DNA of 64,000 bases from contig CAJQIG010000001.1 in assembly GCA_905478415.1 (NCBI GenBank), positions 72,818 through 136,817 on the forward strand, given 5' to 3'. Both the position numbers and the translations under genes were made by a program. Below, piece by piece: positions 22,201-60,870 of the stretch. This stretch comes from an uncultured Patescibacteria group bacterium (lineage in GTDB: Bacteria > Patescibacteriota > Microgenomatia > UBA1400 > PJMF01). The notes under the pieces are model-generated. The model saw only the letters and a list, made by a program, of their open reading frames with translations, did not search any database and had not been told where the DNA came from. The stretch's first letter is position 1, and each line of letters opens with the position of its first letter.

Positions 22201-24288
22201 TTAGAACTCAGTCGTATAGGTTGTGTCTGCAGCTACAGTGATGGCCTCTTGCCCTCCAGTGACATCAAAGATGACATCAAAGGTTTCAAGTCCACCCTGT
22301 TTCCAGACGGTACCGATATAGTTAGTTTCATTAGCATAGGGCACTGTGTAAGTAACTGTTAATTTGGCAGTACCGAGTGGTTCAAGTATAAAGAAACCAT
22401 CGATGACGGTGAAACCATTTTCATCGTAGGTGCGGGCTTCTTCAGTAAATCCCTGAGCAGAGATGAGTTCGGATCCTTTTGGAACATAGATACGGGTCCA
22501 GTCACGAAGGGTTGAGTTTAGACAGAGTAATCCAGCTTCTAAGTTGCAGTTATCACCTGCTTCTGGGTTCTTGTAGGTAATCTCTACTGTTTTTTCTATT
22601 TGACCGTTTTCAGGGGCCAAAACTGTCTGTGTTACATCATAGGTAACGAATAGGTTTGACTTTGCGCCACCTAAGTTAGCGTTCACAATTCCGATGAAAT
22701 CCTCACCGTCTTTTGGAGGAGTCATTCTGCCTGCAGCATGTGCTAGTTCGGCTGCTGATTGATGGTCTTCATCAATGAAGTAAAACTGGACGTTGCGATT
22801 AGCAATAGATTCAAATCCTTTTCCAAAGAGCGCTGGCCACTGATCTTTTGGTGCCGCATAAGCCTTAGAGAGCAGTGAACGCATCAGTGGACCTAAAATG
22901 CCTTTACGATCTTCACGAAGGTACGGAGTTGGTCGAGTGATGATCTCAGAAAGGATATAGATAATTTCTGGGCAGTTACATCGGGGATCAGTTTCTGCCG
23001 AAAAGGTCCCGTATCCAGGAACTTCAACAGGACCAAGGACGTTGATCAGGCTGGTCAAAAAATGAGTATCTACCGCAATGATGCCATCTATATCACTTGG
23101 CTCACCGGGAATTTCTTGGTAGTTCTCGTAGAACTTATCCATAGAAACTTTGAAGTCAGGTGAGATGTTCATGTCACGAAGATTCCAGTACTTTTCGGTA
23201 GTCAAGTATCGACCGAGCTCTGGTGGGATTGCTTCCTTTTTCTTAAATCGCTGATCCAGTTCATAAATGTCATCTGATTTTTGAGCTTCAACTTTACCAT
23301 TGGTAATGTTAATGATGGCATAAGCTGTTAAAAAGCCTCCAGTTGGGCGAAGCTCATTATCATTTTGGAATAATACCAGGTATTTTTTTGTTTCGTCATT
23401 GGCTCCAGCTACAGATGGGAGTTGCTCGAGCACTGGCCTAAATTCTGTCAATGAGAGACTAGCTCCAGCAACTAACTCTTGAGCTTGCACAATGTTTTCT
23501 CTTACGAGAGTATCTCCAACTTTTTCAGGATAGTGTTCTGGATCAATTTGTGATAATTCTTGTTCAACTGCTTGAAGATCACTTGAAATAGCATCAAGAT
23601 CAGGTGAGATTTTTTCGAGTGTCTCCAGGATTACTTTGACACGGTCTTCAGTAGTACCACCTTGGAACGGTTGATCCCCTGAAAATCCGAGCACATCTGC
23701 ATAGGGACTTATGGCTGCAAGTGTTTTTGAACCTGCAGATAACCCTGCATCTGCAGCAGCTAAACCATGGAGACCATCCTGATAGTAGCGATTTGCAAAT
23801 GGTACTGAGTTAAAAATTGATAGTTTGGCGTAGGTTGCACGAATAGTAGCAAGTTGTGTAGTCAGTTCTGCAACTTTTTCTTGAGTAGCTGGTAAATTTT
23901 GTCCTTTGAAAAGAGTGTAAGCTTCTTGGCCAATCACTAGAGAGGTAGCTGCCTGAGCTTTCATTTCATTTGCCACCTGATACGCATAGAATGCGAGTGT
24001 GACGAGGACGGTGACTACAAGCAGGATAAGAGCGGCAATGCCACCCCAGATTTTTTGTTTTTTTGTGAGCATACTTTTAGACATGGTTGGTTGTACAGTG
24101 TCATCTGTATTTTCAGCTTCAAGTTCCTTGCCATCAACCATAACTGCCGAACCTGAGTTTGCACTGAGATCATCTTTTTTTGGTATTTTCATAAATTGTC
24201 CAGTCACTGGCTCAGCAGTTTCAGGGAAATCTGGTGAGTTTGGATCGACAAAATCAGAGTCTTGGACAGAAGGCTGGTTTTTGGACAT
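22201..24288 (-). CDS. Bitopic membrane protein with a large extracytoplasmic domain (possibly DUF4012-like)
   Basis: 695 aa: roughly 75 cytoplasmic residues, one transmembrane helix, then about 600 extracytoplasmic residues. The motif YLVLFQNDNELRPTGGFLTAYAI recalls the NNAExRxTGG core of DUF4012 proteins (recalled from memory, not searched). Confidence 0.45.
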   Translation of the reverse strand: MSKNQPSVQDSDFVDPNSPDFPETAEPVTGQFMKIPKKDDLSANSGSAVMVDGKELEAENTDDTVQPTMSKSMLTKKQKIWGGIAALILLVVTVLVTLAFYAYQVANEMKAQAATSLVIGQEAYTLFKGQNLPATQEKVAELTTQLATIRATYAKLSIFNSVPFANRYYQDGLHGLAAADAGLSAGSKTLAAISPYADVLGFSGDQPFQGGTTEDRVKVILETLEKISPDLDAISSDLQAVEQELSQIDPEHYPEKVGDTLVRENIVQAQELVAGASLSLTEFRPVLEQLPSVAGANDETKKYLVLFQNDNELRPTGGFLTAYAIINITNGKVEAQKSDDIYELDQRFKKKEAIPPELGRYLTTEKYWNLRDMNISPDFKVSMDKFYENYQEIPGEPSDIDGIIAVDTHFLTSLINVLGPVEVPGYGTFSAETDPRCNCPEIIYILSEIITRPTPYLREDRKGILGPLMRSLLSKAYAAPKDQWPALFGKGFESIANRNVQFYFIDEDHQSAAELAHAAGRMTPPKDGEDFIGIVNANLGGAKSNLFVTYDVTQTVLAPENGQIEKTVEITYKNPEAGDNCNLEAGLLCLNSTLRDWTRIYVPKGSELISAQGFTEEARTYDENGFTVIDGFFILEPLGTAKLTVTYTVPYANETNYIGTVWKQGGLETFDVIFDVTGGQEAITVAADTTYTTEF

Positions 24289-31090: not shown

Positions 31091-32530
31091 CTAGTTCTTC
31101 TCTTTCGTCAAATCAAGGATAATATATGCTTCTGTTTGAGCAACAATAAAGTATTTTTCGGCAAGTGTGTTGGCTTCATCATCTAGAGTTGGAGTCACAT
31201 AGTACTGGGCACCTTTTTCAATCTTTTTTTCGATCTCAAAACCTAGTGGCCAACCTCTATGGTCTGTTTGAAATAAGAAGGCAGTGTCCCCTCCATACTG
31301 TGGAGCGATAATCAGAGCATCAGCGGGCAGTGTTTCTCGGGCAACTTTTCCGAGTTCAGCATACTCAGGGTGATTGATATTATAAAAGCCTTTAATTTGT
31401 TGCCAAGCAAGTAATAACATTAAAGCAGTTGAAAACCCAATGACCCCAATCGAAACAAGTGCGTTACTCTTTTTTGTGATCCATGTATCAGCTACCAAAA
31501 GTGCGTGAGCCAAAGTGATGGAAACAATTGGTGTGACGAGTGCTTGATAGTAGTCATGTTGTACATTTCCCGTGGCTATGACAGTAAAGTATATTCCAAT
31601 GCTGAGCCACCAACTAAAAATAAAGAATTTTTTCTTTTTTAAACTACTTAGTAAACTGATAGGGAGTGCAAGTATGCCGATATATCCAAGTATCATTTTG
31701 GTAATGCGTTCATATCCAAGCCATCTAACCCAAGCCGGTCTAAATCGAATACCATTTCCATTTAAGAGCCAATCTGAAGCAGGAATACCTTCTGGAAATT
31801 GAGAAATCCAGCGACGCCATGCGAAGAAAGGAGCAATCGCTATGACGACATACAGATACAACCTCAGATCACGAGCAATTTCTTTCAGACTTCTCTCTTC
31901 AAACAACATGACGAGATACACAGGAGCTAAAAATGCGGTGAAGGGTTTGAGCAGGAATGAAAGCAATATGGCCAACAAAGAAACAATAAAAAGTAGATTT
32001 GAGTCTCGTTTTAGGAAGTATCGAAAGGTTGTAATTGAAAGTGTTGAGAAAAAAACCATTGCGGGCTCAGGTAATACCACTCGAGAATAGTAGACTGAAT
32101 AGGGTAAGACAGCAAAGAAAAATGCTGCTAAGTATCCGGCTTTTTTACCATAATAGCTTTTCGTTAGGAAGAACAGAGAAATCAGTGTCCCCATTGAAAA
32201 AAGGATTGAAATCAATCTGCTGGTGGGAACTAATGGTGCACTGGGGATGAGTTCTAAGATACCAGCGGTGAGGAGATTATAGAGTGGAAATTCAACCATT
32301 CGGTACCCCTCAGGATTGTCCAGGCCAGAAGGAATATTAGAGAGATCATGATACTTTGGGTATAGTGGGGCGAGGCCATTTTTTTGATATTCTCTTGTTA
32401 CCGAAGCAGTATCTGCTTGTCTCCAACTATGCCAATCTAAAAGTGGTGTGTTGATTTTATACAGTCGAACAAAAAAGCCTAAAAGAATAATTACTACTAA
32501 AAGTGGATATCGGGTAAAAAGTTTTTTCAT
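31091..32530 (-). CDS. Polytopic GT-C-like (ArnT/PMT-like) membrane glycosyltransferase
   Basis: 479 aa with about 11 transmembrane helices. The first loop INTPLLDWHSWRQADTASV is typical of lipid-carrier-dependent glycosyltransferases. Family assignment is tentative. Confidence 0.55.
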   Translation of the reverse strand: MKKLFTRYPLLVVIILLGFFVRLYKINTPLLDWHSWRQADTASVTREYQKNGLAPLYPKYHDLSNIPSGLDNPEGYRMVEFPLYNLLTAGILELIPSAPLVPTSRLISILFSMGTLISLFFLTKSYYGKKAGYLAAFFFAVLPYSVYYSRVVLPEPAMVFFSTLSITTFRYFLKRDSNLLFIVSLLAILLSFLLKPFTAFLAPVYLVMLFEERSLKEIARDLRLYLYVVIAIAPFFAWRRWISQFPEGIPASDWLLNGNGIRFRPAWVRWLGYERITKMILGYIGILALPISLLSSLKKKKFFIFSWWLSIGIYFTVIATGNVQHDYYQALVTPIVSITLAHALLVADTWITKKSNALVSIGVIGFSTALMLLLAWQQIKGFYNINHPEYAELGKVARETLPADALIIAPQYGGDTAFLFQTDHRGWPLGFEIEKKIEKGAQYYVTPTLDDEANTLAEKYFIVAQTEAYIILDLTKEKN

Positions 32531-32532
32531 TG

Positions 32533-34212
32533 TTAGGCTGTAGTCTTCCGTGTTTTAGAGTGTGTTGAAACTTGTGCCAAGGCTACCACGATACCAGTTA
32601 ACAGCCAAAAAGTGAAGGCAACTTTTGAGGAAACAAAAACATCTATAAAGAGAGCGTTTACAAGGAGGCCTATTGTGGCGGCAATATAGCCTACTGAGAG
32701 GGCACCCTCAAAGGTGAGTTTTTTATTCTTTTTCCAGACGTTGAATGCTTGTTTGAGTGCGAGAGCAATAGTTCCAAAGAAGGCCATAAATCCAAGTGAG
32801 CCTGTTTCTCCTAAGGTTCTGAGGAAGTTATTATCTGTACTGTCTGCTTCAGTGAATTCATAGAGTTCAGATTTTGTGAGCGTTGCATACCCAGTCCCTA
32901 AAAGTGGATTAGTAGTGAAGCCTTGCCAGGCTTGTGGCCAGAGGGTATCAAGCCTTATGGCCATTGAGAGTCCGTATCTCAGTGCATTGTCAGAATAAGT
33001 GCGAGGTTGTTCTACCAACAAGATTATATTTTCTCCAGTAGCTGAAATAGTGGCAACTTGTACAATGTCAGGTACATCAACATAGACATCGCTTGGTCGA
33101 TTAGTAACTGGTTGCTGATCACTCGCAATCAGTGCAGCATCAAGCTCATCAGTTGAGATAGCATTTTCTGGTGCAGTGATCTCAAGTGAAGCCATTGTTT
33201 CTGTAAGGCCTAGTTTTTCTGGAAGATATTCATAGAAGATGTGTGTCTTTGTTTCGTTAAAATTGAGATAGGCCATGTTTAGTTGCGGATAACCTTCAAG
33301 TGCATCGAGCATGCGGTCGGACAAGTCGTCACCAAACTTTAGAACCAGGGCCAAGAATAACAAGCCGACTATAGTACCCTGCTTTGTAATATAGATTAGT
33401 CGTTGTTTTAGTAGTGCCTCTTTTTTAAGTGCCGCCATACAAATGACAACTACTAAGGCAACCAGTGTAGCCGCAAAAGCAGTCCGTGCTGCACTAACGA
33501 TGAGCAGCCAGGTTCCGAGTGTAAATAGACCCCAGAGTAGCCAACGAGTATGTCTTTTTGAAGTCGTCAGTGCCGAAACTAAGACTAAGGGTAAGCTCAA
33601 CACAATATAAGCAGCAAGATCATAATGTCCACCAAATGTAGATTGCACTCGAGCATGCTCTGTTAGGTAGAGACGAAGTCCTTTTGAAAATTCTCTATTC
33701 ATTGTTGAGTACACTGGCCAATAGAGATACTTTTGACCAATTCCATAGAGTGTGACTCCCGTGAAGGTGGCTAAGAAAACTTTGAAGAAAAGTTGTACAT
33801 CCTTTTTTGATTGTATTGAGGAAAAAGTAATAAAGAAGAGTGAAAGGTATTCAAGGTTTCTGAGGTAATGTAAAAGCGTTTTACCAACGTGCACAGGGTG
33901 TAGTGGCACTGTTTTTGTAATAAAAAAGGAAGATAGAACGGATAAAAAACCAATGACAGCGTAGGCAGTGATCATCCAAGTAAGCGGTGTTTTTAAGGTG
34001 GCTTTTTTACGAATGACTTGCACAATCCAGACGATTACTGTTGCTAGAATGAGTATGTCTTCAATACGAACTCGAACAATGTATCCGGGGATAATGTCAA
34101 AAAGGGGGAGCTTTGGATAGAGTGGAATAAAGGCAAGTAGGAAGGCTGTTATGTATAACAGCATTTTTTTATCAAGGTGAGTTAGCGTTCTCTTTGAGAA
34201 AAGTTGTTTCAT
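32533..34212 (-). CDS. O-antigen ligase/polymerase-like (Wzy_C family) membrane protein
   Basis: 559 aa polytopic protein. It is a clear paralog of the N-terminal 560 aa of the 44416-47961 protein, sharing the blocks PLFDIIPGYIVR, ARVQSTFGGHYDLAAY and YTEADSTDNNFLRTLGETG. Confidence 0.6.
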   Translation of the reverse strand: MKQLFSKRTLTHLDKKMLLYITAFLLAFIPLYPKLPLFDIIPGYIVRVRIEDILILATVIVWIVQVIRKKATLKTPLTWMITAYAVIGFLSVLSSFFITKTVPLHPVHVGKTLLHYLRNLEYLSLFFITFSSIQSKKDVQLFFKVFLATFTGVTLYGIGQKYLYWPVYSTMNREFSKGLRLYLTEHARVQSTFGGHYDLAAYIVLSLPLVLVSALTTSKRHTRWLLWGLFTLGTWLLIVSAARTAFAATLVALVVVICMAALKKEALLKQRLIYITKQGTIVGLLFLALVLKFGDDLSDRMLDALEGYPQLNMAYLNFNETKTHIFYEYLPEKLGLTETMASLEITAPENAISTDELDAALIASDQQPVTNRPSDVYVDVPDIVQVATISATGENIILLVEQPRTYSDNALRYGLSMAIRLDTLWPQAWQGFTTNPLLGTGYATLTKSELYEFTEADSTDNNFLRTLGETGSLGFMAFFGTIALALKQAFNVWKKNKKLTFEGALSVGYIAATIGLLVNALFIDVFVSSKVAFTFWLLTGIVVALAQVSTHSKTRKTTA

Positions 34213-43258: not shown

Positions 43259-44257
43259 TTAGTTAAGTGACGGATCAATTGGTTTACTAGGATCAGTTGG
43301 ATCAGTGGGTAAAATAAGATTTGCATCTTGGTCAGCTGCACTGAAGATAAGGATGGCAATACCACCAGCTTCTCGATATCCTTGGATGAGCCCTTTGACC
43401 ATTGGAAAGTTTACACTGACATGAGGAAGAAAGAGTGTTTCCATCTCTCCTCCGTCGGCTGGAATCAGCTGAAGCATAAACATGCCAGCTTCAATTCCTG
43501 CTTCAAAGAAAATATATTGTTCTCCCGAATTTAGTTCGACTCCGTAGCCATCATATTCATCGTCTTCTTCGAAGTCATCTTCGTAACCTAGGTCATCTCC
43601 ATATTCAGCATAGTATTGGTCTTCTTCGGTCCATTCGTCACCATAGTCGTTATAATCTGGGTTATCCTCATCCATGTAGGAGTTTGGATCGTCTAGTATG
43701 TTGTCGACGGTAGTGAGCATTTCGTCAATGTCATCTAAATCTTGGTAGTCTTCTGCCCATCCGTCAGAGTTGAATTCACCTGCTTTACCAGCATCATAAA
43801 TCACAATTTCTGTAGCAGTGGTGTTTGGTTTTGTCGGTGGACCAATATAGGTATCCAGTTCGGCAAACGCAGGATCTAAAAAAGCTAAGTCAAATCCAGG
43901 TGCATCTTTGTAACTAGCTTCTTTTGAAATGTGAGGTTTAACCATACCTTCGGCGGGTCCCGAATTAAATGTTTGATTTGATTTTTTGGGCTCACTCTCT
44001 TTTTCGAAGGCAGGAATGTATTGAGATCTTATCCATTCGCCATCGACTTCAGTTAAGCGATAGTGTGGCATGTGATCAGCTTTTTCAGAGTGAATAAAAT
44101 CTAGAGCCTGATTGACTTCGAGAATAATGGCTTGCAGTTTGGCCACGTAGCCAGCAGGTTTTTTTTCGTAGAGGGATTCAAGGGTGGTTAGTAATTGAGG
44201 GAGCCGCTCAGTTTTATAGTATTCTTTCAGTACTTGTAAATCTCGCTCTTGTTTCAT
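43259..44257 (-). CDS. Hypothetical highly acidic protein with a D/E/Y-rich low-complexity core
   Basis: 332 aa with a helical N-terminus, a central DEDNPDYNDYGDEWTEEDQYYAEYGDDLGYEDDFEEDDEYDGYG stretch and a conserved-looking C-terminus (FEAGIEAGMFMLQLIPADGGEMETLFLPHVSVNFPMVKGL). Confidence 0.55.
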   Translation of the reverse strand: MKQERDLQVLKEYYKTERLPQLLTTLESLYEKKPAGYVAKLQAIILEVNQALDFIHSEKADHMPHYRLTEVDGEWIRSQYIPAFEKESEPKKSNQTFNSGPAEGMVKPHISKEASYKDAPGFDLAFLDPAFAELDTYIGPPTKPNTTATEIVIYDAGKAGEFNSDGWAEDYQDLDDIDEMLTTVDNILDDPNSYMDEDNPDYNDYGDEWTEEDQYYAEYGDDLGYEDDFEEDDEYDGYGVELNSGEQYIFFEAGIEAGMFMLQLIPADGGEMETLFLPHVSVNFPMVKGLIQGYREAGGIAILIFSAADQDANLILPTDPTDPSKPIDPSLN

Positions 44258-44415: not shown

Positions 44416-47400
44416 TTATTCTACTTTCTTAAAACTATAGCTCCATTTAGCAGCATTCTTTGAGAATTCAATGAACCTATCTCCAGTAGTATTTGAGAGT
44501 CCACTTGCTAAGAAAGTTATGTTGCTTCCCTCTTTCTGGTAAGAAAATTGGGCTGCTGATTGATTTGGTTTCATGTCGCCCGAAATAATATAAATATTTT
44601 TAGATGGTAACTTTTCAAGTCTTGGCAAGACTTGTTGAATCATAAAACTATCTGCACTGCTTGGTGAGTTGGATATGCTCATTTGACTCATGCTTTGTAA
44701 ATTAGCATCATATCCGACCCAGTTGGCTCGGTCGATGAAGATGAAAACTGTTGAGATAGTATCCATTTTTTCCAAATCGAGTATCTGGTTGAGAATGTAG
44801 TGCTGTTGAAGCTGGGTCGTCTCCCCTTTTTGATTAGTTGAAATAAAGAGGAAATAATCTTCAGGAGTATAGAAATGGTGATAGGCAGTTTCAAATTTCT
44901 TTTGAGGAAGTAGGTCAAAATTTCCGGGAGCAAAGAGTGTTGGTGGTGCTTCTGGAGTTTCAAGATAGAGTTGTGAGAGCGCATCGATTTGTTCTTGATC
45001 ATAGTTGTAGAGAATATCACCCGTAATGACTGAAAATTCAGCTTCTTTACCCACTTGTTTGTAAGCTGAAACTAAGGCAGAAAGTGAATGGACAGAAAGG
45101 TTTTCAGCAAAACTGAAACGTGTACTTGCAACAGTAAAGCGATAGTCTTCGGGCAGTGTTTCCAACTGTAATGGTGCATTGATTGTTTTTGGGGTTGGAG
45201 AGGTAAACGGGAGTTGCTCTCGTACTTGGTAGAGTATGCACGTATAGTTGCATCCGAGTCGGATAATATCTAGGTCAAACTCAGTATGTAAGGCTGAAAA
45301 ACTAGGTGTTGTGTTCGCATCAAGATCGAAGTTACTTGCAAAGAGAGAGTTTGATGCAAGTATTTGGTGATAGAGCGCAGTTAGGTTTTTATAACTGTGA
45401 TCTTCTTCCCAGACACTATTGGGATGGTCCATGTAGGTTTGTTCTTTTGAAAGCGGTAACAAAGTATACATGCCATTACTAAACATATCTACATAGTATG
45501 GATTCATGGCTGTAATAAGATATGGTGTTTTAGTAGGATCGAAGAATGGATTCTCACCGACCGTATTTTCGTAAAAGAAGTCATTAATTTGACTGACCGC
45601 AGTGTAGCGCCAATTGGGCTGGGTGCTTCTAAAGTTTTGAAGCGTAGTCTCTAAAGTTGTACGAGAAAGATAGGTGAAAGTAAAAAGTATGCTCGCTAAG
45701 GTAACAGTGCCTACTTTTAACATTGGGATAAAAAGATGTGTCAAGCCTTTTTGATGTTCAAACTTTTGATACAACCATTCGAGAGCAAAGGCAAATCCTA
45801 GTATAAGGAGTGCAATGAGTGCGGCTGTAGTATCTGCTACAAGTAAGGCAACAACTCCGGTAGCAATGGCACCAAATAGAGTGATGGCTCTTGATCTTTG
45901 AGTTAGAGGCAGAGTCAGTAAGAGCAAAAATAACAAGAAGATCCCTGCAGAAGGCGTACTAACAGCAGTGATAAAGGCTTGACTTGAAATTAAAAGAACC
46001 AGTGCTGTAGTACGAATAAAAGCATGTTTACTTATTTTTTTAAGGAGTTGTGTAAACATCCACAAGCTAGTTAAGGATAGAGTCAGGTTGAAAACAAAGT
46101 ATATACCTGGATTATTATAGATTTTTAGTAATGGTAGTAACAAAATTGCATATAGATCTAATCTAGCTGGGTAAACAGCGGAGCCTCTACAGAGTTCTAC
46201 CGTTCCTGTTCGCAAAAAACAACGGGCAGCTGCGATGTGTTCTGCGCCACTGGGGTTAGCCGCAAAGTTGAGCACTGCACTTCTCTCTGCAAATGGATTT
46301 TGGTACACCAAGAAGAAAAAGCAGGTTCCAAAGAGAAGTAGTACCCCATATTTGGTGACATATTTTTTAAGACTTCGTCCAAGATCTACAGCTTTTGTTT
46401 GTGCTTGCACCGGATGTGCAATATAGTAGCTGGCTAGTATAATTCCTGAGAGCGACCAAAAGGTGAAGGCAACTTTAGAAGCAGCAAAAACATCAATAGT
46501 CAGGGCATTGAGAAGCAGGCCAACTGTGCCAGCAATAAAACCAATATTCAATGTTTTAATAAGTGAGTCAGTGGCAGTAGTTGTTCGATATGCTGTTTTG
46601 AGAAGGTAGAAGACACTTCCAAAAAAAAGTATAAATCCAAGGAGACCCGTTTCTCCAAGCACGCGCAAGTAGTTATTATCAGTGCTATCTGCTTCGGTAT
46701 AGACGGTGGTATCGCCTTTTGTAAGCGTGGCATAGCCACTGCCAGTGAGTGGGTTCTTCATAAAACCTTTGAGAGCGAGTGGCCAGAGCGTGTCTAAACG
46801 AATTCCCATCGATAGACCATACTTGAGCGCATTTTCACTCCAAGTTCTTTCTTTCTCAACCAGTCGATAGGTGGTTACTCCTGTCTCAGGATCAGTGATA
46901 GCAATCTGCACTAAATCGGGGACATCTATATATACGTCATCAGGCTTTAAATTACCTTCGGGAGAACGGTTTTCACCCGGTAACTTAAGTGGTGAATTTA
47001 CAGGTAGTTTAGCATCAATTTTTAGTACAATAGCATGAACGGGAGGAACCGTTTTACTCAGTACGGCCAGACTCCTATAAAAATCTGGGGCAATAAAAAG
47101 TACCCCAAAGACAATAGTTATGCCACCGAGTAGAGAAAGAGTTGCCCACTTAAGGATAGTGGTCACAGACCGATGTGTTTCTTTAAATTTAAAGAAAAGA
47201 ACTATGGCGATGGTGACGCCATAGGCAGCCAGCGAACTTTTGCTTGATCCGGCTATCAGCAACCAAACTCCAGCAATTTGCGCCGCGATAAGGCCAATCT
47301 TTGCTCTGTTACTTTTGGTACTCAGCAGGACGGCAAATAAAAGAGGTAGCACGAGCACTAGGTAGGCAGTTAAGTCATAATGGCCGGCAAAGGTGCTTTG

Positions 47401-47961
47401 CACACGTGCAAATTCATTGAGATATAAGGCTTCACCCTTACTATATTCTCTGTTCATTGTTGAATAGAGGGGCCAGTGTAAGTATTTTTGTCCAGCACCA
47501 TAGACAGCTATGGCCAGAACAGTTGTCGCCAAGACTATCAAAAAAAGTTTAACATCACTTCTCTTTTTGATGGCACTAAAGGTAAAGAAAAAAAGTAGGA
47601 AGTATTCAATGTATCGAAAAAGATGCAAGCCACTTTTTCCAATGTGAATGAGTTGCGGAGGTATAGTGGTGGTTAAAAAGAGACCAAACAATATTGAAAT
47701 GAAGCCAACAAGTATGTAGAGTAAGATCAAAAAGGTAAGCGGTGTTTTCCATGCAATCTTTTTTCTGAGTACTTGCACAAACCAAATAATTGCTGTGATG
47801 AAGACTAAGATATCTTCGGCTCGTGCTCTAACAATATAACCAGGAAGGACATCAAAAAGTGGAATTTTGGGAAAGAGTGGAATAAAGGCAAAAAGAAAAG
47901 CTGTTGTGATTAACAGTGCAGAAGTGTCAAACCAGTGAGTTATCTTTTTGAGCGGTTGCAT
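44416..47961 (-). CDS. Large fusion membrane protein: Wzy_C/O-antigen-ligase-like N-terminal part plus extra transmembrane segments and a roughly 420-aa C-terminal extracytoplasmic domain
   Basis: Start chosen at MQPLKKITHWFD (47961), by analogy with the paralog at 32533-34212. The first 560 aa align block-for-block with that paralog. The C-terminal domain has metallophosphoesterase-like strings (ITGDILYNYD, FAPGNFDL, IYIISGDMKPN), which is only a weak call. Confidence 0.6.
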   Translation of the reverse strand: MQPLKKITHWFDTSALLITTAFLFAFIPLFPKIPLFDVLPGYIVRARAEDILVFITAIIWFVQVLRKKIAWKTPLTFLILLYILVGFISILFGLFLTTTIPPQLIHIGKSGLHLFRYIEYFLLFFFTFSAIKKRSDVKLFLIVLATTVLAIAVYGAGQKYLHWPLYSTMNREYSKGEALYLNEFARVQSTFAGHYDLTAYLVLVLPLLFAVLLSTKSNRAKIGLIAAQIAGVWLLIAGSSKSSLAAYGVTIAIVLFFKFKETHRSVTTILKWATLSLLGGITIVFGVLFIAPDFYRSLAVLSKTVPPVHAIVLKIDAKLPVNSPLKLPGENRSPEGNLKPDDVYIDVPDLVQIAITDPETGVTTYRLVEKERTWSENALKYGLSMGIRLDTLWPLALKGFMKNPLTGSGYATLTKGDTTVYTEADSTDNNYLRVLGETGLLGFILFFGSVFYLLKTAYRTTTATDSLIKTLNIGFIAGTVGLLLNALTIDVFAASKVAFTFWSLSGIILASYYIAHPVQAQTKAVDLGRSLKKYVTKYGVLLLFGTCFFFLVYQNPFAERSAVLNFAANPSGAEHIAAARCFLRTGTVELCRGSAVYPARLDLYAILLLPLLKIYNNPGIYFVFNLTLSLTSLWMFTQLLKKISKHAFIRTTALVLLISSQAFITAVSTPSAGIFLLFLLLLTLPLTQRSRAITLFGAIATGVVALLVADTTAALIALLILGFAFALEWLYQKFEHQKGLTHLFIPMLKVGTVTLASILFTFTYLSRTTLETTLQNFRSTQPNWRYTAVSQINDFFYENTVGENPFFDPTKTPYLITAMNPYYVDMFSNGMYTLLPLSKEQTYMDHPNSVWEEDHSYKNLTALYHQILASNSLFASNFDLDANTTPSFSALHTEFDLDIIRLGCNYTCILYQVREQLPFTSPTPKTINAPLQLETLPEDYRFTVASTRFSFAENLSVHSLSALVSAYKQVGKEAEFSVITGDILYNYDQEQIDALSQLYLETPEAPPTLFAPGNFDLLPQKKFETAYHHFYTPEDYFLFISTNQKGETTQLQQHYILNQILDLEKMDTISTVFIFIDRANWVGYDANLQSMSQMSISNSPSSADSFMIQQVLPRLEKLPSKNIYIISGDMKPNQSAAQFSYQKEGSNITFLASGLSNTTGDRFIEFSKNAAKWSYSFKKVE

Positions 47962-48538: not shown

Positions 48539-50314
48539 TTATATGTCGTATTTGACAATTAAGAACTCATTGTTCTCTAGTATGGTTTGATAGTTTTCAT
48601 TTGTAAATATTGTATGTATTGTGTCGATTGACTCCTCTAGCATTAGTTTTTTGTTAAATTTTATGTATGTGACGTCTTTTTGATTGAGAAGCTCATACGT
48701 ATCTAAACTTTTTGAGTTTTCGACTGAAGTTCTAAAGTTATGAATAAAATCATCAATGTGTTTTGGTTGGAAGCCGCTGTAGCCATTAACAAGCTGGCAG
48801 TCATAATGCATGTTGTTCAAGAGCATTTTGGTCCAGTAATTTAGGGTTATCAAGACATGAGTTTTTGGTTGTTCAGGTGCAAATGGATATTCTAAAAGCA
48901 CGTCATTTACTTGACATTCAGATATCAAGTAATTGTAGCTGTCATCTCGGTAGGTATCTACAGCAGTTCTTTGTTTAATTGGAACGATTTCTAGTATGTA
49001 CAATGCTGTTATCAACGTAATAATAAAAATTGCTTTCTTAATTGTATATGATTTAAAAATTGAGTTGAGTGCTACACCAACAAAGTAAAACATACCCACT
49101 TGAACTACAAAAAACCATCTAGATATCACTCGTAATGCTGAAAAAAAAGGAGTTAGTTTAAGTGGAAAAATATACGGCAATGGTATGGCAAGATATTTTC
49201 CATTAAGACTGAGTCGAGGTCCGAGTACTGCTATTATTCCCCATCCGAGCAACAACATAAAGAAATGAAAGATTTGCCTTTCTTTCTTTGTTAAGGAAGA
49301 TTTCCTTAGTTTTTTTATTCCATATGTAACAACAATTAAAAGTATGAAGCCTGTCCCAAATGTTTCTCCTCCAAGGCGATGGTTATGGACATTTATTTTT
49401 TTATAGAATGATTCAACCCAGAAGCTTGGAAGCGGGTTAAAAAAGAAATCAGTGATTTGCATCGAATGATTTATATAGGTATCCGCTGAACGTTCTATCT
49501 CATATACTCTTTGGATTTGCACAAATTTGAAAACAAAGTAACCTGCAATAACAAGAAAGCCCAAGAAAAATAATGATCCTTGTTGTATGGACTTCAGTAA
49601 AGCTTTGGAATCAAAAGCTTTTTTATATTTTTTCCTAAAAAGGTTTTTGAATTGGATATGAGTACTCATTTTCAAAAGAAAGAATATACCTGAAATTGTT
49701 AAGGAGTAAATGCCAATGTAGACTGCAGCTAAAAATTGCAATCCGCTCAAGAAACCAGCGAACACATATTCTGATCTTTTTTTTGCTGTGAGTAGTACTC
49801 CTAATGAAAAAAAGAAAAACCAATATGAGATCATTTGATAATGTGCATACATGGTAAATACATACGGTGAAAAAGTGAAAAGTAATGTCAACAAAAATAT
49901 AGTTTTTTTATCTTTAAAAACTTTATTCCAAAAGAACTGTAGAGAAATGATATTTAGTAATCCAACTGCTAGAAAAACAAGATTGTGAGTTGTTATGTAG
50001 TCTTCTGTAAAAGGGAAAATAAATAGTCCCAAAATACTTTGTGGGAGTAGCAGATCAGTAAAGTACTTTCCTCCTGGAGTTGGATAGAACATTGAGATAT
50101 TTCCGAAATTCATGAAATCTAGTGTGGAAATGTGCTGTATATTCTGTTGGAGAATGTAGACCATCAATGGATAGTCGTACCAATCTGATAAAGCTGAAGA
50201 AATGTGTAACACCAGTGTTTTATTGAAAAGTAAAAATAAAAAGAATATAAATAAGACCGAGAGGATGGAAAACGCTTTTGCTTTTGAGAGTTGTATTAAT
50301 TTTTTCTTTGACAT
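48539..50314 (-). CDS. Large polytopic membrane protein, GT-C-like (function unknown)
   Basis: 591 aa with many transmembrane helices and a C-terminal soluble domain. Very AT-rich. Divergently arranged with the plus-strand island. Confidence 0.5.
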   Translation of the reverse strand: MSKKKLIQLSKAKAFSILSVLFIFFLFLLFNKTLVLHISSALSDWYDYPLMVYILQQNIQHISTLDFMNFGNISMFYPTPGGKYFTDLLLPQSILGLFIFPFTEDYITTHNLVFLAVGLLNIISLQFFWNKVFKDKKTIFLLTLLFTFSPYVFTMYAHYQMISYWFFFFSLGVLLTAKKRSEYVFAGFLSGLQFLAAVYIGIYSLTISGIFFLLKMSTHIQFKNLFRKKYKKAFDSKALLKSIQQGSLFFLGFLVIAGYFVFKFVQIQRVYEIERSADTYINHSMQITDFFFNPLPSFWVESFYKKINVHNHRLGGETFGTGFILLIVVTYGIKKLRKSSLTKKERQIFHFFMLLLGWGIIAVLGPRLSLNGKYLAIPLPYIFPLKLTPFFSALRVISRWFFVVQVGMFYFVGVALNSIFKSYTIKKAIFIITLITALYILEIVPIKQRTAVDTYRDDSYNYLISECQVNDVLLEYPFAPEQPKTHVLITLNYWTKMLLNNMHYDCQLVNGYSGFQPKHIDDFIHNFRTSVENSKSLDTYELLNQKDVTYIKFNKKLMLEESIDTIHTIFTNENYQTILENNEFLIVKYDI

Positions 50315-50435: not shown

Positions 50436-52970
50436 ATGTCAAACATGTTCTCTCATAGCACAAAACGAATATTGAGTAATAAATTTTTTAAAATTGCTGC
50501 CTTTTTTGTATTTATATTAATACTTTTTGTTTATCAGATATTTGCACTAGTAAAAAATCGTGCTAAGTCTTTAGATGATCAACAAATCACCACACTCGTT
50601 CAAAGGGTCTCATTCAGTTCAGAACAAAATTTTAGTAAAATATTGTCTAAAGACAAAAGAACTTTCTCCTTCAAGGCTGAAAATAATAATTTAGGCATCA
50701 TTGCTGTTTTAATAAATAATTATGACCAAGTGAATTCTGACCAACTCACATTTCGAATACGGGAAAAGACTTCTGATAATTGGTATTTCCAAGAGAAATA
50801 TACTACATCCAAGATGAATGCCTCCTATTTCTATACTTTTGGATTTCCACTAATAGCTGAATCAAAAGGAAAAGAATACTTGGTTGAGATAGAATCAATT
50901 GCTGGAGTTCCTAATAATTCAATTTCTTTACATTCTGATTCGCGTTTTTTTATGGCTAAATATTCGTATCCAAAGTCGTATTTGTTTGATCATAGTGATG
51001 AAATTGTTCCATTTACAATTAAAAGAATAGAAGGATATCGCGAGTATCTTTCAAAGGCAGATGTCTTCGCTCTATTTTTGAAAACCTTGGGATGGACAGC
51101 TGTAGTGGGTATTATATTCTATATTTCTAAGAAATATTTTCTTGAGATTATTGCAGGGTATTTGAATAGTATTTACGCAAGAAAGAATGAATTAGCAGAA
51201 TATTTAAAAGACTATGTTGGTTCAAAGTCTTTCAAAAGTGAACTGCTTTTTGTTTTGACTCCAGTAATGGCGTTGTTAGATTTTGCTTTTTTTTCTCCTT
51301 TTACAAAAGAAATTGGGATACCATTGCTTGTTATAATTTCTCTTTTAAATATCGGATATTTATATTTAATATATGTATCCTTTAATGCAATTTTAAGTTT
51401 TGTTAGAGATAAAATATATTATCCAATTGCTTTTCCAGTAGTAGTATTTGTTGTCAGTAGATTGTTTTTTCTTGATGCTGTACCCCGATGGGATAGTGCA
51501 GTTTACTTTCATGCATTACTTAAGAGCATGGCAAAGTTTGATTACAGTATCGGGTCGTTTTTAGGTTTTAATTGGTTTGGGCACCCGTCAATGGGTTTTG
51601 GGCTTTATTCCTCCATTTTTCAATTTCTAAAACCAGATAGCATTTTAATGGTAAATATTGGAAATATTTTCTTAGGAATTATTGCAATTATTTCTTTTTA
51701 CTTAATTAGTCTCTACTTTTTTGAAAATAGAAAAAAAATTGAACTTGTTTTATTAACTACAATGTTTGCTATAAACCCCTTGTTTTTTAGCGTCTCCACT
51801 GCTTTTTTACCAGATTTTGGAGTGATTGTATTTTTCTTAGCAGCATTAGCAGCATTTTTTAATAAAAAACATTTACTGACAACATTCTTTTTTCTATTAA
51901 TGGTTTTTTCTAAAGAAACTGGTGTTTATACATATGGTTTCTTTCTTTTGTTTATTTCAATATTTGTTTTATTGCAACGTCTTTCTAAAATCCATCCAGA
52001 AAAAATAATCAGTTTTTTCTTTGCTCTGATTCCAGGGCTTAGTTTTCTTTTATACTTCATACATAGTAAGGGTAGACATTGGACTGCTGGAAAGCCAATT
52101 GTTATTTCAAATGATTGTTTTTTTTGTTTTTCGTTTCAACCTGCTCACTTTATTCAAAATATTGAAGTTATGTTTATACTAAATTTTAGTTGGATTTTAA
52201 GTGTCATAATCATTATCTCTTTAATTCTTCATTTTTTTAAACGTCAACAATTTTCTTCTTTTTCAAGTGCAGTGAAAAAACAAGAGTTTAAATCTTTAGT
52301 TGCAACTTTTGTTAGTTTTGTCGTCTTTTTTATGGTTTTTGTTATTTATATTATTCCAAGTTATATGACAATTTCTGTTGTGTTTTTACTATTTATAGCT
52401 TATTTTTCATTACTACAATTAAAAATAAACTCTGGATTTAGAATTTTGATACTACTATTTGTCACAACTATATTTTTGATTCAAAGCTTTTTTAACATAG
52501 ATTGGTTGTCTTCGAAGATCTTTGGTGAGTTTAGCCTTGGGAATCACCAAGTGGTAAAAGTTGGTTCTGAATATTCCTGTGATGGATTGATTTATAATAC
52601 TCAATATTTGTACATAGATCGTTTAATTACAAAGTTCCATCAGGAGTTTGGTATTAGTGAGAGTGATTCCATTATTATGAACGCTTCACACTGGCATAGT
52701 TTTTACCTTGGTGGAGGTGGGTACGAAGTATATATAGACCCAAATACCTTGCAAAAAACGTTTATGAAAACAAATGGATTTCGTCCTCAGATATACCCTT
52801 TGAAGGCAGCTAAAACATACCCTGATGAGGCATACTATTTAGCTTTCCCATGGTTAGAAGATGAAGGTAGTTCTCTTGAGATTCTCAAAGGGTTCTATAG
52901 TATTGATAAGGAAACAAGAATTACTACTGGTGGATACTGGATAACTGTATATAGTCTGTCTAAGAAATAA
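50436..52970 (+). CDS. Large polytopic membrane protein (844 aa), putative GT-C-type glycosyltransferase
   Basis: N-terminal transmembrane helix, a roughly 200-aa soluble region, at least 12 transmembrane helices including a LDAVPRWDSAVYF loop, and a C-terminal soluble domain. Confidence 0.5.
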   Translation: MSNMFSHSTKRILSNKFFKIAAFFVFILILFVYQIFALVKNRAKSLDDQQITTLVQRVSFSSEQNFSKILSKDKRTFSFKAENNNLGIIAVLINNYDQVNSDQLTFRIREKTSDNWYFQEKYTTSKMNASYFYTFGFPLIAESKGKEYLVEIESIAGVPNNSISLHSDSRFFMAKYSYPKSYLFDHSDEIVPFTIKRIEGYREYLSKADVFALFLKTLGWTAVVGIIFYISKKYFLEIIAGYLNSIYARKNELAEYLKDYVGSKSFKSELLFVLTPVMALLDFAFFSPFTKEIGIPLLVIISLLNIGYLYLIYVSFNAILSFVRDKIYYPIAFPVVVFVVSRLFFLDAVPRWDSAVYFHALLKSMAKFDYSIGSFLGFNWFGHPSMGFGLYSSIFQFLKPDSILMVNIGNIFLGIIAIISFYLISLYFFENRKKIELVLLTTMFAINPLFFSVSTAFLPDFGVIVFFLAALAAFFNKKHLLTTFFFLLMVFSKETGVYTYGFFLLFISIFVLLQRLSKIHPEKIISFFFALIPGLSFLLYFIHSKGRHWTAGKPIVISNDCFFCFSFQPAHFIQNIEVMFILNFSWILSVIIIISLILHFFKRQQFSSFSSAVKKQEFKSLVATFVSFVVFFMVFVIYIIPSYMTISVVFLLFIAYFSLLQLKINSGFRILILLFVTTIFLIQSFFNIDWLSSKIFGEFSLGNHQVVKVGSEYSCDGLIYNTQYLYIDRLITKFHQEFGISESDSIIMNASHWHSFYLGGGGYEVYIDPNTLQKTFMKTNGFRPQIYPLKAAKTYPDEAYYLAFPWLEDEGSSLEILKGFYSIDKETRITTGGYWITVYSLSKK

Positions 52971-58279: not shown

Positions 58280-59245
58280 ATGGGCAAAAAAAAGATTTCG
58301 GCTATTATTGCTTGTTATAAAGATGAGCAAGCAATTCCTTACATGTACCTTCGTTTGAAAAAAGTATTCAAACAACTTTCTGTTGAACATGAAATAATTT
58401 TTGTGAACGATGGGAGTCCTGACAATACCGAAGAAGTTCTAGAAGCATTAGTGAAAAAAGATGCAGCTGTTATAGCGATAACTCATTCTAGAAATTTTAG
58501 CTCTCAAATGGCTTTTACAAGTGGTATGGATATTGCAACGGGAGATTGTGTAGTCTTTCTTGATGGTGATTTACAAGATCCACCTGAGATGATTGCCAAG
58601 TTTTATACAAAATGGCTGGAAGGTTTTGATGTTGTCTATGGAGTTCGTGTTAAACGGGAGGCTCCCTTGTTAATGCAGTGGGCTTATAAAGGCTTTTATC
58701 GTGTTTTTAATAAAATATCATATATTCATATCCCTTTAGATGCTGGCGACTTTTCTTTGATAGATAAAAAGGTATATAGTGAGTTGAAAAGACTTCCAGA
58801 GCGAGATAGATTCTTGCGAGGTCTAAGAGCTTGGCTTGGTTTTAAACAAGTTGGTGTTCCTTACATTAGACCAGAACGAAAATTTGGTGTAACAACAAAT
58901 AATCTAATTAAAAATTTTCAATGGGCTACAAAAGGTATTTTTTCTTTTTCTTATATCCCATTACAAATAATGACGTTCACCTCTTTAGCTGTATTCTTAC
59001 TTTCGTTATTTGGAATTGTATATCAAATTGCTCTATCCTTATTCTTTCCAGAATCCACACCAGACGGAGTGAGTACCATTATTGTATTAGTGTTATTTAT
59101 TGGTTCAATCCAGCTATTAGGAATTAGTATTTTAGGTGAGTACATTGCTAAAATCTTTGAAGAAGTAAAGCAAAGACCAAAGTATATTGTTAAAAATGTG
59201 TTGAGAAAAAAAGTTTCTTATTCTTTAGATAAAGAAACCGTATAG
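58280..59245 (+). CDS. GT2 polyprenyl-phosphate glycosyltransferase (Dpm1/GtrB/ArnC-like)
   Basis: 321 aa with ISAIIACYKDEQAI...FVNDGSPDNT...FLDGDLQDPP (DxD) and two C-terminal transmembrane helices, as in GtrB/ArnC. Confidence 0.75.
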   Translation: MGKKKISAIIACYKDEQAIPYMYLRLKKVFKQLSVEHEIIFVNDGSPDNTEEVLEALVKKDAAVIAITHSRNFSSQMAFTSGMDIATGDCVVFLDGDLQDPPEMIAKFYTKWLEGFDVVYGVRVKREAPLLMQWAYKGFYRVFNKISYIHIPLDAGDFSLIDKKVYSELKRLPERDRFLRGLRAWLGFKQVGVPYIRPERKFGVTTNNLIKNFQWATKGIFSFSYIPLQIMTFTSLAVFLLSLFGIVYQIALSLFFPESTPDGVSTIIVLVLFIGSIQLLGISILGEYIAKIFEEVKQRPKYIVKNVLRKKVSYSLDKETV

Positions 59246-60870
59246 ATATTACACAAATTAAAACAGCCTTCATGAACTTTTTCTAGTTCAAAGGTTTCAG
59301 AATATTTCTTAAAGGTATTTTTAAATTGACCTGAAGCTTCGATTCCATAGTTAGCCAGATAGATTTTTTCGCCATTTGTAAGCTTTTGTGTATAGGTTTC
59401 CAGTAAACTCTGATTGTTAGGAACTCCCCAGACTTCTAGTTTTTTCTGATTAAAATCCTGCTGTTCATCAAAAGGCAGTACAACATAGGTGTTGTTAGTG
59501 AAAAAATCAACCATATAGGGTGAGGTTAAAGAAATAAGTTGGGCCTGCTCTTCTCTCCTCGAAGAAAAGAACGCATTGTATTCTTGGATCGAAAGGTACC
59601 ACCAAGGTGATTCGGCATACTTCAGATTTAGCATGACTTGTGATTTGAGGGGAAGTAATCTGCTACCTAGGAGTATGATCCCAAGTATAAGAGTGGTTCC
59701 TGGTACAAATAGTTTTTTAGGAATAGAGAGTTTCTTAAGAAGCATTTGAATTCTTTTTTGAGAAGAAATATTATCTAACAAAAGTGCCAGGCCAAGTAGG
59801 ATGGCAAAAAATCCAGTAAAGATATATCTCGAGTCAAATGCATAAAAGGTAGACATAAAAATGGTTTGTGCGAGTGTGCTGATACCTAAGTAGAGGGCAA
59901 ATGTTCGGTGTTTTGGTTTTATAAGTGCGGACAGAATTCCAAGAAACCCCAGCCATCCGATCAGTTTGGAAAACCAAGGTCTGACATCCCACAAAAATCG
60001 AGCTGGATGACCAAGTAAAATCTGCACATATTCAGAAAAATGATCAGCAAAGACTGACATACCAAAGTAACTGTTTGTAACAGTGCTTGATCCTGGCGCT
60101 TGGGTTTTTGGAGTGATAATTCTGAGTAAGAAAGCTATGCTTTTAGCGAAATTATAGGAAAAAGGTAGCAGTAATAGAATTGGAAGCCCAAGTATGATAG
60201 TTGCGATCAGGGTTTGTTTATATTTTTTCTGTCGAAGATTAGGCAAGGCCATCTTGAAAAATTGCACCGCAACCAGAGTAACTACCAGTGGCACATAGGC
60301 AAATTTTGTAAAGTAAAATGCAACTGCAACGGTGCCAGTAGCTAATAAAACTTTTTTAGTTGTCTTTTGAAGCATCAGATAACAACTGAGTAGAAACAGC
60401 GGTACTAGGAGGTTCTCGGCCATAGCTAGAGTTGGCAGCCAGAAAAAGTGATAGCTAGTGACAGTTATGCCAAGCACTAATGCGTGAATAAACGGTTCCT
60501 TGGTGATTTTTTTTAGAATTGCGTACAAGAGTACTACACTCAAATAACTTAAAAATACATTGGTAAAGTAGAAGGTTCTGGGATCAAAAGAAAGTAAAAA
60601 CCCAGGTAATAATGCCAATGAATACCCTTGTGGTACTGACGGGTCACTACCAGGTAGACCAGTTTGCAGTCCCGACCGACAGAGGTTCCAAGTGCCTTCG
60701 GCAATAAAGCATCTAGCCACCGTTACATAGTGAAACGAGTCGGGAAAAGGTTCGAAGTTGGGAATGAGTGTTCGAGTGCTATAGGGGTTACGAAAGAGCA
60801 GAAAAAAGAGGGCAAAACTGGCAAGAAAGAGTGGCCAATGACGACCAAACAGGTACTTAATTTTTTTCAT
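59218..60870 (-). CDS. Polytopic GT-C-like membrane protein
   Basis: 550 aa with many transmembrane helices and a periplasmic loop EPFPDSFHYVTVARCF. Its 3' end overlaps the convergent GtrB-like gene by 28 nt. Confidence 0.5.
   Translation of the reverse strand: MKKIKYLFGRHWPLFLASFALFFLLFRNPYSTRTLIPNFEPFPDSFHYVTVARCFIAEGTWNLCRSGLQTGLPGSDPSVPQGYSLALLPGFLLSFDPRTFYFTNVFLSYLSVVLLYAILKKITKEPFIHALVLGITVTSYHFFWLPTLAMAENLLVPLFLLSCYLMLQKTTKKVLLATGTVAVAFYFTKFAYVPLVVTLVAVQFFKMALPNLRQKKYKQTLIATIILGLPILLLLPFSYNFAKSIAFLLRIITPKTQAPGSSTVTNSYFGMSVFADHFSEYVQILLGHPARFLWDVRPWFSKLIGWLGFLGILSALIKPKHRTFALYLGISTLAQTIFMSTFYAFDSRYIFTGFFAILLGLALLLDNISSQKRIQMLLKKLSIPKKLFVPGTTLILGIILLGSRLLPLKSQVMLNLKYAESPWWYLSIQEYNAFFSSRREEQAQLISLTSPYMVDFFTNNTYVVLPFDEQQDFNQKKLEVWGVPNNQSLLETYTQKLTNGEKIYLANYGIEASGQFKNTFKKYSETFELEKVHEGCFNLCNIYTVSLSKE

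Follow-up and report, generated by a model that had tools for sequence, protein, structure and literature searches.

The window analyzed in this work is a stretch of 64,000 nucleotides from an uncultured Patescibacteria (CPR) bacterium, and one of its genes encodes an O-antigen-ligase-like protein with 660 residues that WaaL lacks. A first-pass annotation, made from the sequence alone, described the product as an O-antigen-ligase-like (Wzy_C) core followed by extra transmembrane (TM) helices and a large catalytic domain, an architecture that it considered undescribed. Indeed, the literature searched on combinations of Wzy_C with metallophosphoesterases or PMT_2, of O-antigen ligases with calcineurin-like fusions and of Patescibacteria with GT-C enzymes yielded no paper describing it and nothing else of relevance. 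The reading that we favor, with a probability of roughly 0.6, is that the gene encodes a surface-glycan assembly enzyme in which an active module A is joined to two degenerate, extracytoplasmic accessory modules, B and C. The gene is a conserved variant of known cell-surface sugar machinery and no new kind of system.

The gene is located on the reverse strand at positions 44416..47961. It is a single long ORF, as annotated before, that starts with ATG and encodes 1181 aa plus a stop codon instead of the 1182 aa then given. An alternative in-frame TTG upstream of this ATG would lengthen the product to 1223 aa; the homologues all begin at the Met equivalent to the ATG. The ORF listing and the AF2 model describe a three-module membrane protein with ~19 TM helices, modeled confidently across all modules (pLDDT 85.1, pTM 0.81). 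Hydropathy and AF2 place ~7 additional TM helices at residues 518-766, followed by a hydrophilic tail of 415 aa (residues 767-1181). Extra helices and a 420-aa domain had been recognized at first pass, but their identity has to be revised, as the C-terminal 660 aa are two modules (GT-C-derived module B and phosphoesterase-fold module C) and no longer one domain. Residue conservation in the long family was counted in an alignment of 37 homologues, which contains four invariant Cys, all in module B and located in its first outer loop and its outer domain. Together with the loop charge pattern (12 + 7 TM helices with K/R-rich inner loops), these Cys suggest that the C-terminus, comprising the soluble parts of modules B and C, faces outward. 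The window protein additionally has an extra hydrophobic hairpin (residues 684-717; 45811..45912, reverse strand), which is missing from P0001-P0004, where the alignment shows a gap, and which has a pLDDT of only 56-58.

Module A (residues 1-517; 46411..47961, reverse strand) is, by homology and fold, a WaaL/Wzy_C-like transferase with 12 TM helices and a long outer loop. In the AF2 model, the 12 helices fall within residues 1-515 and the loop is located at ~296-430, near the C-terminus of the module, in keeping with the WaaL-like fold. WaaL is also the top Foldseek match of the long model (7tpg_B, E 5.9e-7, TMt 0.64), which makes the WaaL/Wzy_C enzymes (PF04932; CAZy GT121 and related BP-Pol families; 7TPG) the best fold match of module A. 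At the sequence level, Pfam Wzy_C matches 33 of the 37 homologues at E<=0.01 (best 1.9e-13), whereas the window protein itself scores 28.2 bits (E 1.9e-6), below the gathering score of 31.7 bits. The ligase-like core proposed at first pass is thereby upheld, even though a sequence search of the PDB with the N-terminal module gave no match, including the solved WaaL.

Module A is very strongly conserved and holds ~65 of the 72 invariant columns of the alignment. Three Arg are invariant (37/37), namely R171 and, in the long loop, R388 and R433. D390 in the loop region is invariant as well, and so is the loop stretch E423-N430 (EADSTDNN), with E423, A424, D425 and N430 at >=90%. [quoted passage not shown] Module A resembles O-Lig in its 12 TM helices and its long outer loop with invariant Arg, but a loop His as in WaaL is not evident: the loop contains no invariant His, and the nearest nearly invariant one, H194, lies elsewhere. 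Judged from its sequence, module A may be a ligase, a polymerase or a protein O-oligosaccharyltransferase, roles that look alike at this level. To our knowledge, Patescibacteria have no LPS, so that, in contrast to WaaL, its acceptor would have to be other than lipid A-core.

A stand-alone paralogue of module A (559 aa; 32533..34212, reverse strand) was identified with BLASTP and has weak Pfam matches to Wzy_C and IctB. The IctB bicarbonate-transporter label was discarded (44 bits versus a cutoff of 366). The paralogue aligns to the long protein over 545 columns, of which 46% are identical and 61% positive (E 4e-148), a similarity that chance would not produce. The duplication noted at first pass is therefore real, but the homology spans residues 5-510 of the long protein and ends at ~510 rather than 560. 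The shared motifs quoted there are present as well, namely PLFDVLPGYIVR in the long protein versus PLFDIIPGYIVR in the 559-aa protein, ARVQSTFAGHYDL versus ARVQSTFGGHYDL, and YTEADSTDNNYLRVLGETG versus FTEADSTDNNFLRTLGETG, with the correction that the short copy of the third motif begins with F and not with Y.

Module C (residues 925-1181; 44419..45189, reverse strand) has a metallophosphoesterase (MPE) fold with degenerate motifs, based on Foldseek, Pfam and the motif columns of the alignment. Foldseek retrieves the MPE alpha/beta sandwich fold of Rv0805 (2hyp, E 1.2e-3, probability 1.00, TMt 0.59), with further fold matches to Mre11 and the Pol delta/alpha B-subunits. The window protein has no PF00149 match, and Pfam and NCBIfam scans of its C-terminal 664 and 404 aa returned nothing; Pfam Metallophos (PF00149) does match seven of the 37 homologues, with P0011 reaching 27.5 bits, above the cutoff of 21.5. 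The resemblance to MPEs suspected earlier thus holds at the fold and family level. The GD-x-x-Y and GNFD strings on which it was based were also found (TGDILY, residues 981-986; PGNFD, residues 1012-1016), and weak SbcD/Mre11 profile matches align GD and GN of module C. No stand-alone paralogue of this domain was detected in the profile search of the window ORFs.

An active role of module C, as a non-canonical phosphoesterase that works together with module A, seems unlikely to us. The domain shares the fold with PF00149 enzymes (Rv0805, Mre11/SbcD), but the five MPE motifs (DxH, GDxxD, GNH[DE], H, GHxH) are not kept. Motif I reads S-T-R-F and D-x-H is absent in 37/37, which speaks against activity, whereas motif II retains GD, although GD alone, and its bridging Asp (D982) is conserved in 32 of the 37 homologues. 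Motif III reads GNFD and keeps N1014 (34/37), but the His of GNH is Phe here and Y or F among the homologues. A His at motif IV (position 1077), present in 19/37, would favor activity, and together with the conserved D982 and N1014 it could mean that module C still binds a metal and catalyses in an unusual manner. The window protein has D1077 instead; its motif V is SGDM and lacks GHxH. Activity could further be argued from the Asp or Asn at position 1129 and from R948 (24/37), located where the metal-1 ligands would be, and from the Metallophos scores of the seven homologues. Across the homologues, GD and GN mostly persist while the other canonical motifs have decayed, and GD and GN have been lost altogether in some lineages (P0065, P0066, P0078). 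Such a pattern is typical of inactive MPE folds, and the DNA polymerase alpha/delta B-subunits among the fold matches are inactive MPE-fold relatives. Module C also differs from calcineurin-like MPEs in being tethered to a 19-TM protein and probably extracytoplasmic. A fusion to an enzyme yielding a lipid diphosphate would make chemical sense: where the polyprenyl-diphosphate carrier is released, an active module C might convert it to the monophosphate by hydrolysis. Alternatively, it might cleave a glycan phosphodiester or diphosphate link by analogy with PGAP5, which cleaves a glycolipid phosphodiester, and LpxH, which cleaves a lipid-linked diphosphate.

Module B consists of two parts. The membrane part (residues 518-766; 45664..46410, reverse strand) is a truncated GT-C core, identified by profile search, BLASTP and hhalign; it begins with TM13, continues with a first outer loop that bears a disulfide (C581, C591) and ends with 6 further TM helices. 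The outer alpha/beta domain (residues 767-924; 45190..45663, reverse strand) aligns to residues 410-550 of a 550-aa window protein and is a homologue of the periplasmic C-terminal domain found in a stand-alone GT-C family. It carries NPYYVDMFSN...LLPLS and GCNYTC, of which C904 and C908 are invariant (37/37). The 550-aa protein (59218..60870, reverse strand), which was missed in the first-pass annotation, is an intact stand-alone paralogue of module B. It was found at E 1e-45 in the profile search of the window ORFs and at 29% identity with BLASTP. In hhalign, module B matches its family at a probability of 100% (E 4e-60), apart from a stretch of ~190 aa in the center that module B does not have.

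The GT-C assignment of the paralogue is based on AF2 (pLDDT 93.4) and Foldseek, which retrieved 17 GT-C structures at E<1e-3, with matches to ArnT (E 1.5e-7), STT3, AglB, PglB, ALG9/12, AftA, DPY19 and Pmt4. The stand-alone family and module B are both without a match to a Pfam model (one member scores 23 bits with PMT_2, below the cutoff), and a PDB search with the family profile returned nothing meaningful. When the window's two PMT_2 proteins, as single sequences, were compared with the family by hhalign, neither was significant; close kinship to PMT_2 is therefore not claimed. The paralogue shares the fold of the ArnT/PMT/STT3-PglB enzymes and has an invariant Asp in the first outer loop (D44, 95/95); E152 (94/95) and R348 (95/95) are conserved in its family as well, and Y48, D346 and Y349 are likewise invariant there. 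Module B, in contrast, lacks the central helices, and hence a complete TM core, as well as the conserved acidic residue of the first outer loop: position 571, which corresponds to D44, is S/Q/N/H/A, the residue matching E152 varies, and D346, R348 and Y349 are deleted. Judging from these alignments, module B is a truncated descendant of an ArnT/PMT-type GT-C enzyme with its own periplasmic domain.

A module B that is still an active GT-C would make the long protein bifunctional, carrying out two successive glycan-transfer steps. This is very doubtful on sequence grounds, as the deletion removes several TM helices and Y48 of the intact family has no conserved counterpart either. The clear homology to the ArnT-like family, the conserved P556, Y604 and N625, and the outer-domain motifs NPYYVD...LLPLS and GC..C common to the stand-alone family would be in its favor, as would an acidic residue in the first outer loop, E574, which is present in 23/37. 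The GT-C matches of the full-length model are, however, non-significant (ALG12 E 0.39, ArnT E 1.4), and the same gene cluster keeps the intact paralogue.

GT2, GT4, PMT_2, epimerase and methyltransferase genes make the window as a whole a glycan island, and no RNA elements were found in it with Rfam. One PMT_2-type GT-C gene (31091..32530, reverse strand; Pfam PMT_2, E 1.5e-11) lies directly downstream of the 559-aa module A paralogue, in the same order as in the fusion. In L004, the intact GT-C gene immediately precedes the long gene, and in L006 it lies close by.

Whether the fusion is conserved in related genomes, a check proposed at first pass, was examined. About 35 clusters (50% identity) of homologues of 1000-1270 aa share the fusion layout, it is uninterrupted in four GTDB genomes at identities down to ~33%, and all genomes traced are Patescibacteria. 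Two of the three modules look degenerate, and a 34-aa stretch of low model confidence is unique to the window protein, which might point to an artefact of assembly or frameshift or to a pseudogene in decay that links two or three adjacent genes. This possibility is negligible and was ruled out, because at least 10 contigs from different, independent assemblies carry the identical 1181-aa product, the divergent clusters and GTDB genomes keep the same architecture, Ca. Pacebacteria and Patescibacteria BroJett025 have single-ORF fusions of 1144 and 1121 aa, and the four Cys and many more residues of the C-terminal half are invariant in a protein that AF2 models confidently in every module.

In the favored reading of an active module A with two degenerate accessory modules, module A would be the intact and catalytic WaaL/Wzy-type part, acting as a lipid-PP-glycan transferase or polymerase. 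Module B, which has lost ~190 central residues and all acidic and basic residues that are invariant in its family but still has its first outer loop, some of the helices and its outer alpha/beta domain, would be a pseudoenzyme that either retains acceptor or glycan binding or docks partner enzymes. Module C would be non-hydrolytic and at most a one-metal binder of phosphate or diphosphate. The verdict of inactivity is drawn entirely from the loss of residues conserved in relatives, and it makes the catalytic C-terminal domain of the first-pass annotation doubtful: most metal ligands and the His of GNH are missing from module C, and the GT-C remnant lacks the family-invariant residues.

A further, rather improbable, possibility is a self-contained ligation-and-recycling machine. 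Here, the WaaL-like module A would free polyprenyl-diphosphate beside a re-tooled phosphoesterase-fold domain, which would hold one metal on D982, N1014, D1077 and D1129, with R948 in place of the second metal. Module C would then dephosphorylate or capture the carrier, with the acceptor polymer bound to the GT-C remnant. If true, this would be the first WaaL/Wzy enzyme with built-in carrier processing and the first GT-C pseudoenzyme, and lipid-scavenging CPR bacteria would have adapted in this way to spare scarce carrier lipid.

One homologue is labeled 'O-antigen ligase family protein' by NCBI. This label covers less than half of the long protein, and our analysis corrects it. The stand-alone GT-C family is sizeable (>90 clusters at 50% identity, pLDDT 93), ArnT-like and without a Pfam model, and the fusion is a natural 'Rosetta stone' that ties WaaL-like and GT-C enzymes to one pathway. 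Patescibacteria are uncultured, host-dependent bacteria with poorly understood envelopes, and they probably attach to their hosts through surface glycans. In our favored reading, the locus presents a conserved, clade-specific WaaL/Wzy-type enzyme design with two domesticated, degenerate enzyme modules, and it supplies constructs to probe WaaL-like function in bacteria that are, as far as we know, LPS-free.

At window 44416-47961 (minus strand), the long gene forms one uninterrupted 1181-aa ORF that starts at an ATG; an upstream TTG would lengthen it, but every homologue starts at the Met that corresponds to the ATG. Hydropathy and a full-length AF2 model (mean pLDDT 85.1, pTM 0.81) place 12 helices in residues 1-515 and about seven more in 518-766, followed by a 415-aa hydrophilic tail, in line with the extra transmembrane helices and large hydrophilic C-terminal part described in the first-pass annotation. 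The protein is divided here into modules A (1-517), B (518-924) and C (925-1181). The best explanation, to which we assign a probability of about 0.6, is that module A would be catalytic and that modules B and C are accessory binding or docking parts.

Module A is WaaL-like, as proposed earlier. Pfam Wzy_C scores 28.2 bits on the long protein, slightly below the gathering score of 31.7, and matches 33 of 37 aligned homologues (best E 1.9e-13). Against PDB, the full-length model scores best with WaaL, the O-antigen ligase 7tpg_B (Foldseek, E 5.9e-7, TMt 0.64), with FtsW also among the matches. In the 37-sequence alignment, module A is the best-conserved module, with some 65 of the alignment's 72 invariant columns. 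R171/E172 and S189-D196 are among these, and the long outer loop carries the invariant R388/D390 and R433 plus a conserved E423-N430 stretch (EADSTDNN), in which E423, A424, D425 and N430 are each kept at ≥ 90%. O-antigen ligases are described as proteins of 12 transmembrane helices with a long loop on the periplasmic side, two Und-PP-binding Arg residues and one His (PMC10920833). The helices and the loop of module A fit this description, and its invariant Arg residues are candidates for the Und-PP-binding pair; the His was not located. Module A is the putative catalytic part. The paralogy claimed between the first 560 aa and the 559-aa protein (window 32533-34212, minus strand) is real, with 46% identity over 545 columns (BLASTP, E 4e-148) and the originally listed motifs present, but it covers residues 5-510 and stops near residue 510.

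For module C, the suggested metallophosphoesterase (MPE) resemblance held at the fold and family level, but the canonical motifs are mostly gone. Pfam and NCBIfam models gave no match to this region of the window protein; Pfam Metallophos matches seven of the 37 homologues, including P0011 (27.5 bits, cutoff 21.5, residues 976-1107). PDB profile searches put SbcD/Mre11 on top at E 0.05-0.6, which alone is not significant, with GD aligned onto GD and GN onto GN. In Foldseek, the full-length model matches the phosphodiesterase Rv0805 at rank 2 (E 1.2e-3, probability 1.00, TMt 0.59), followed by Mre11 and by the DNA polymerase delta and alpha B-subunits. Together, these results consistently indicate an MPE fold. 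Motif I (D-x-H) is replaced by S-(N/H/Q/T)-R-F in the family (S-T-R-F in the window protein), and motif II (GDxxD) keeps only G981 (34/37) and D982 (32/37), reading TGDILY in the window protein. Motif III (GNH[DE]) becomes GN(Y/F)D, with N1014 in 34/37 and GNFD, within the string PGNFD, in the window protein. The His of motif IV is present in 19/37 homologues and is D1077 in the window protein, and motif V (GHxH) is SGD(L/M) or TANH, here SGDM. Both GD and GN are lost in a few lineages (homologues P0065, P0066 and P0078). We conclude that module C is an MPE-fold domain and not a canonical hydrolase, in which a residual one-metal or phosphate-binding site may persist. The retained GD and GN would also suit a phosphoesterase that is still active and has been re-tooled to process either the released carrier or a phosphodiester link; with most canonical motifs gone, we consider this unlikely.

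The extra helices and a single 420-aa C-terminal domain, as originally drawn, gave way to a different division, in which the helices and the outer alpha/beta domain form module B. A word-indexed search with residues 518-1181 gave four homologues of 1076-1144 aa each, and an exhaustive profile search gave 680 proteins. Among its 150 top-ranking representatives (50%-identity clusters), about 35 are 990-1270 aa long, and their matches run from residue ~500 through to the C-terminus. The same search gave many proteins of about 520-580 aa that match in two stretches only, covering profile positions ~16-170 and ~115-360. One of them lies within the window (59218-60870, minus strand, 550 aa) and has no match in Pfam or NCBIfam scans. 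A profile made from residues 518-1181 of the long protein, aligned with the four homologues, finds this ORF at E 1e-45 among the window ORFs, and BLASTP aligns it with module B in two blocks of 29% and 22% identity.

An AF2 model of the 550-aa protein, built on an alignment of 95 stand-alone family members (pLDDT 93.4, pTM 0.93), matches ArnT by fold (Foldseek, E 1.5e-7). All 17 matches at E<1e-3 are GT-C glycosyltransferases, with human and yeast STT3, AglB, PglB, ALG9/ALG12, AftA/AftB, DPY19 and Pmt4 among the other matches. The family is large, with over 90 of the 50%-identity clusters in the top 150 matches, and appears from the model to be an uncatalogued, ArnT/STT3-like GT-C family. Profile-profile alignment with the long family (probability 100%, E 4e-60) pairs stand-alone residues 3-162 with long residues 530-683 and ~352-550 with 718-924, and the long family is without the central ~190 residues. 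The invariant or near-invariant stand-alone residues have no conserved counterpart there: D44 (95/95; S/Q/N/H/A at position 571), Y48 (95/95) and E152 (94/95) fall at variable positions, and D346 (87/95), R348 (95/95) and Y349 (94/95) within the deleted segment. Because of these losses, module B is a truncated GT-C remnant that is very probably without catalytic activity. It still has the beginning (QNPF) of the first outer loop, together with the outer alpha/beta domain (NPYYVD..LLPLS, GC...C), as well as two invariant, long-family-specific Cys pairs (C581/C591 and C904/C908); GT-C matches of the full-length model were non-significant in Foldseek. That module B remains an active GT-C would accord with the retained outer parts, and given the missing segment and residues we regard it as improbable.

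An artefact or pseudogene is highly implausible, since the evidence shows a genuine, conserved fusion: at least 10 contigs of different ENA assemblies carry exactly this 1181-aa gene product, and a GTDB scan found homologues at four loci, all in Patescibacteria (Ca. Pacebacteria, L004; Paceibacterota UBA9650; BroJett025, L006; SMAG_U8367). No frameshift separates two genes, and L004 and L006 each encode the protein in one ORF (1144 and 1121 aa, respectively). One homologue is named 'O-antigen ligase family protein' at NCBI; database annotation covers only the first module.

Module A presumably ends in the cytoplasm, as WaaL does, and the following linker (residues 519-534) is K/R-rich. Module B is predicted to have seven membrane passes in the window protein and five in P0001-P0003, three of the four closest homologues, because of a 34-aa hydrophobic insertion (residues 684-717; window 45811-45912, minus strand), a predicted transmembrane hairpin of low model confidence (pLDDT 56-58) absent from the four closest homologues. 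The helix number is odd, and residues 767-1181 are therefore inferred to lie outside the cell. The invariant cysteine pairs fit this location, as does the C-terminal domain of ArnT-like enzymes, which is periplasmic.

The whole window is a surface-glycan island (G+C content 39.4%; no Rfam family above the gathering score in the 64 kb). Besides several genes of the GT4 and GT2 types, it carries two for PMT_2 proteins, two for epimerases/dehydratases, some for methyltransferases and at least two for additional polytopic proteins without Pfam match. A PMT_2 GT-C gene (31091-32530, minus strand) directly follows the short paralogue after a 2-bp gap. The fusion has its modules in the corresponding order, although the GT-C here belongs to a different family from module B. 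In L004, a block of GT2, GT4-like and intact 578-aa GT-C genes lies immediately upstream of the long gene, and in L006 GT2, GT4-like and intact GT-C genes lie within 6 kb of it; downstream, the two loci are syntenic for an epimerase, PMT_2, two GT4 genes and RuvB. This places the intact and the degenerate GT-C in a single conserved gene cluster. In the window, the long gene and the GT2, GT4-like and GT-C block stand about 11 kb apart (48.5-59.2 kb), with other glycan genes between them, which indicates an insertion or rearrangement within the island relative to L004. The interval holds methyltransferases, an FkbM-GT2 fusion, an epimerase, split transketolase-like genes and two polytopic proteins without Pfam match that flank the long gene (48539-50314, minus strand, 591 aa; 50436-52970, plus strand, 844 aa). 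These have roughly 9 to 13 hydrophobic segments and may be further unrecognised GT-C-like enzymes; a counterpart of the 591-aa protein is conserved close to the long gene in L004 (47% identity) and in L006 (64%). Directly downstream of the long gene, a soluble 332-aa protein without Pfam match (43259-44257, minus strand) has a low-complexity centre that is extremely acidic and D/E/Y-rich. Its homologue was found at the equivalent place in L004 (163 aa aligned at 31% identity) and not in L006, where the ORF at that position is similar in size. A 695-aa protein with one N-terminal transmembrane segment and a DUF4012 domain (22201-24288, minus strand; E 3e-26) lies among housekeeping genes, including a class II tRNA synthetase (18704-20197) and a PBP2-type transpeptidase (14081-15865).

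From the homologies, folds, losses and conservation observed, we infer a mechanism with a catalytic module A and accessory modules B and C. Having lost catalytic residues and kept conserved outer domains, modules B and C would most likely bind the acceptor glycan or a phosphorylated carrier, or dock partner enzymes. PglL and WsaB-type O-oligosaccharyltransferases also carry Wzy_C. Because Patescibacteria are not known to have LPS, the acceptor would not be lipid A-core; it may be a polysaccharide of the wall, a lipid anchor, or a protein of the surface or S-layer. The parts are of known kinds (WaaL/Wzy_C, GT-C and MPE fold). In the literature searched, no description was found of their combination, of the domesticated GT-C remnant or of the restriction to Patescibacteria, which agrees with the first-pass view of the fusion architecture as undescribed. 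The finding is not a new principle, and is of interest to glycobiologists and CPR specialists.
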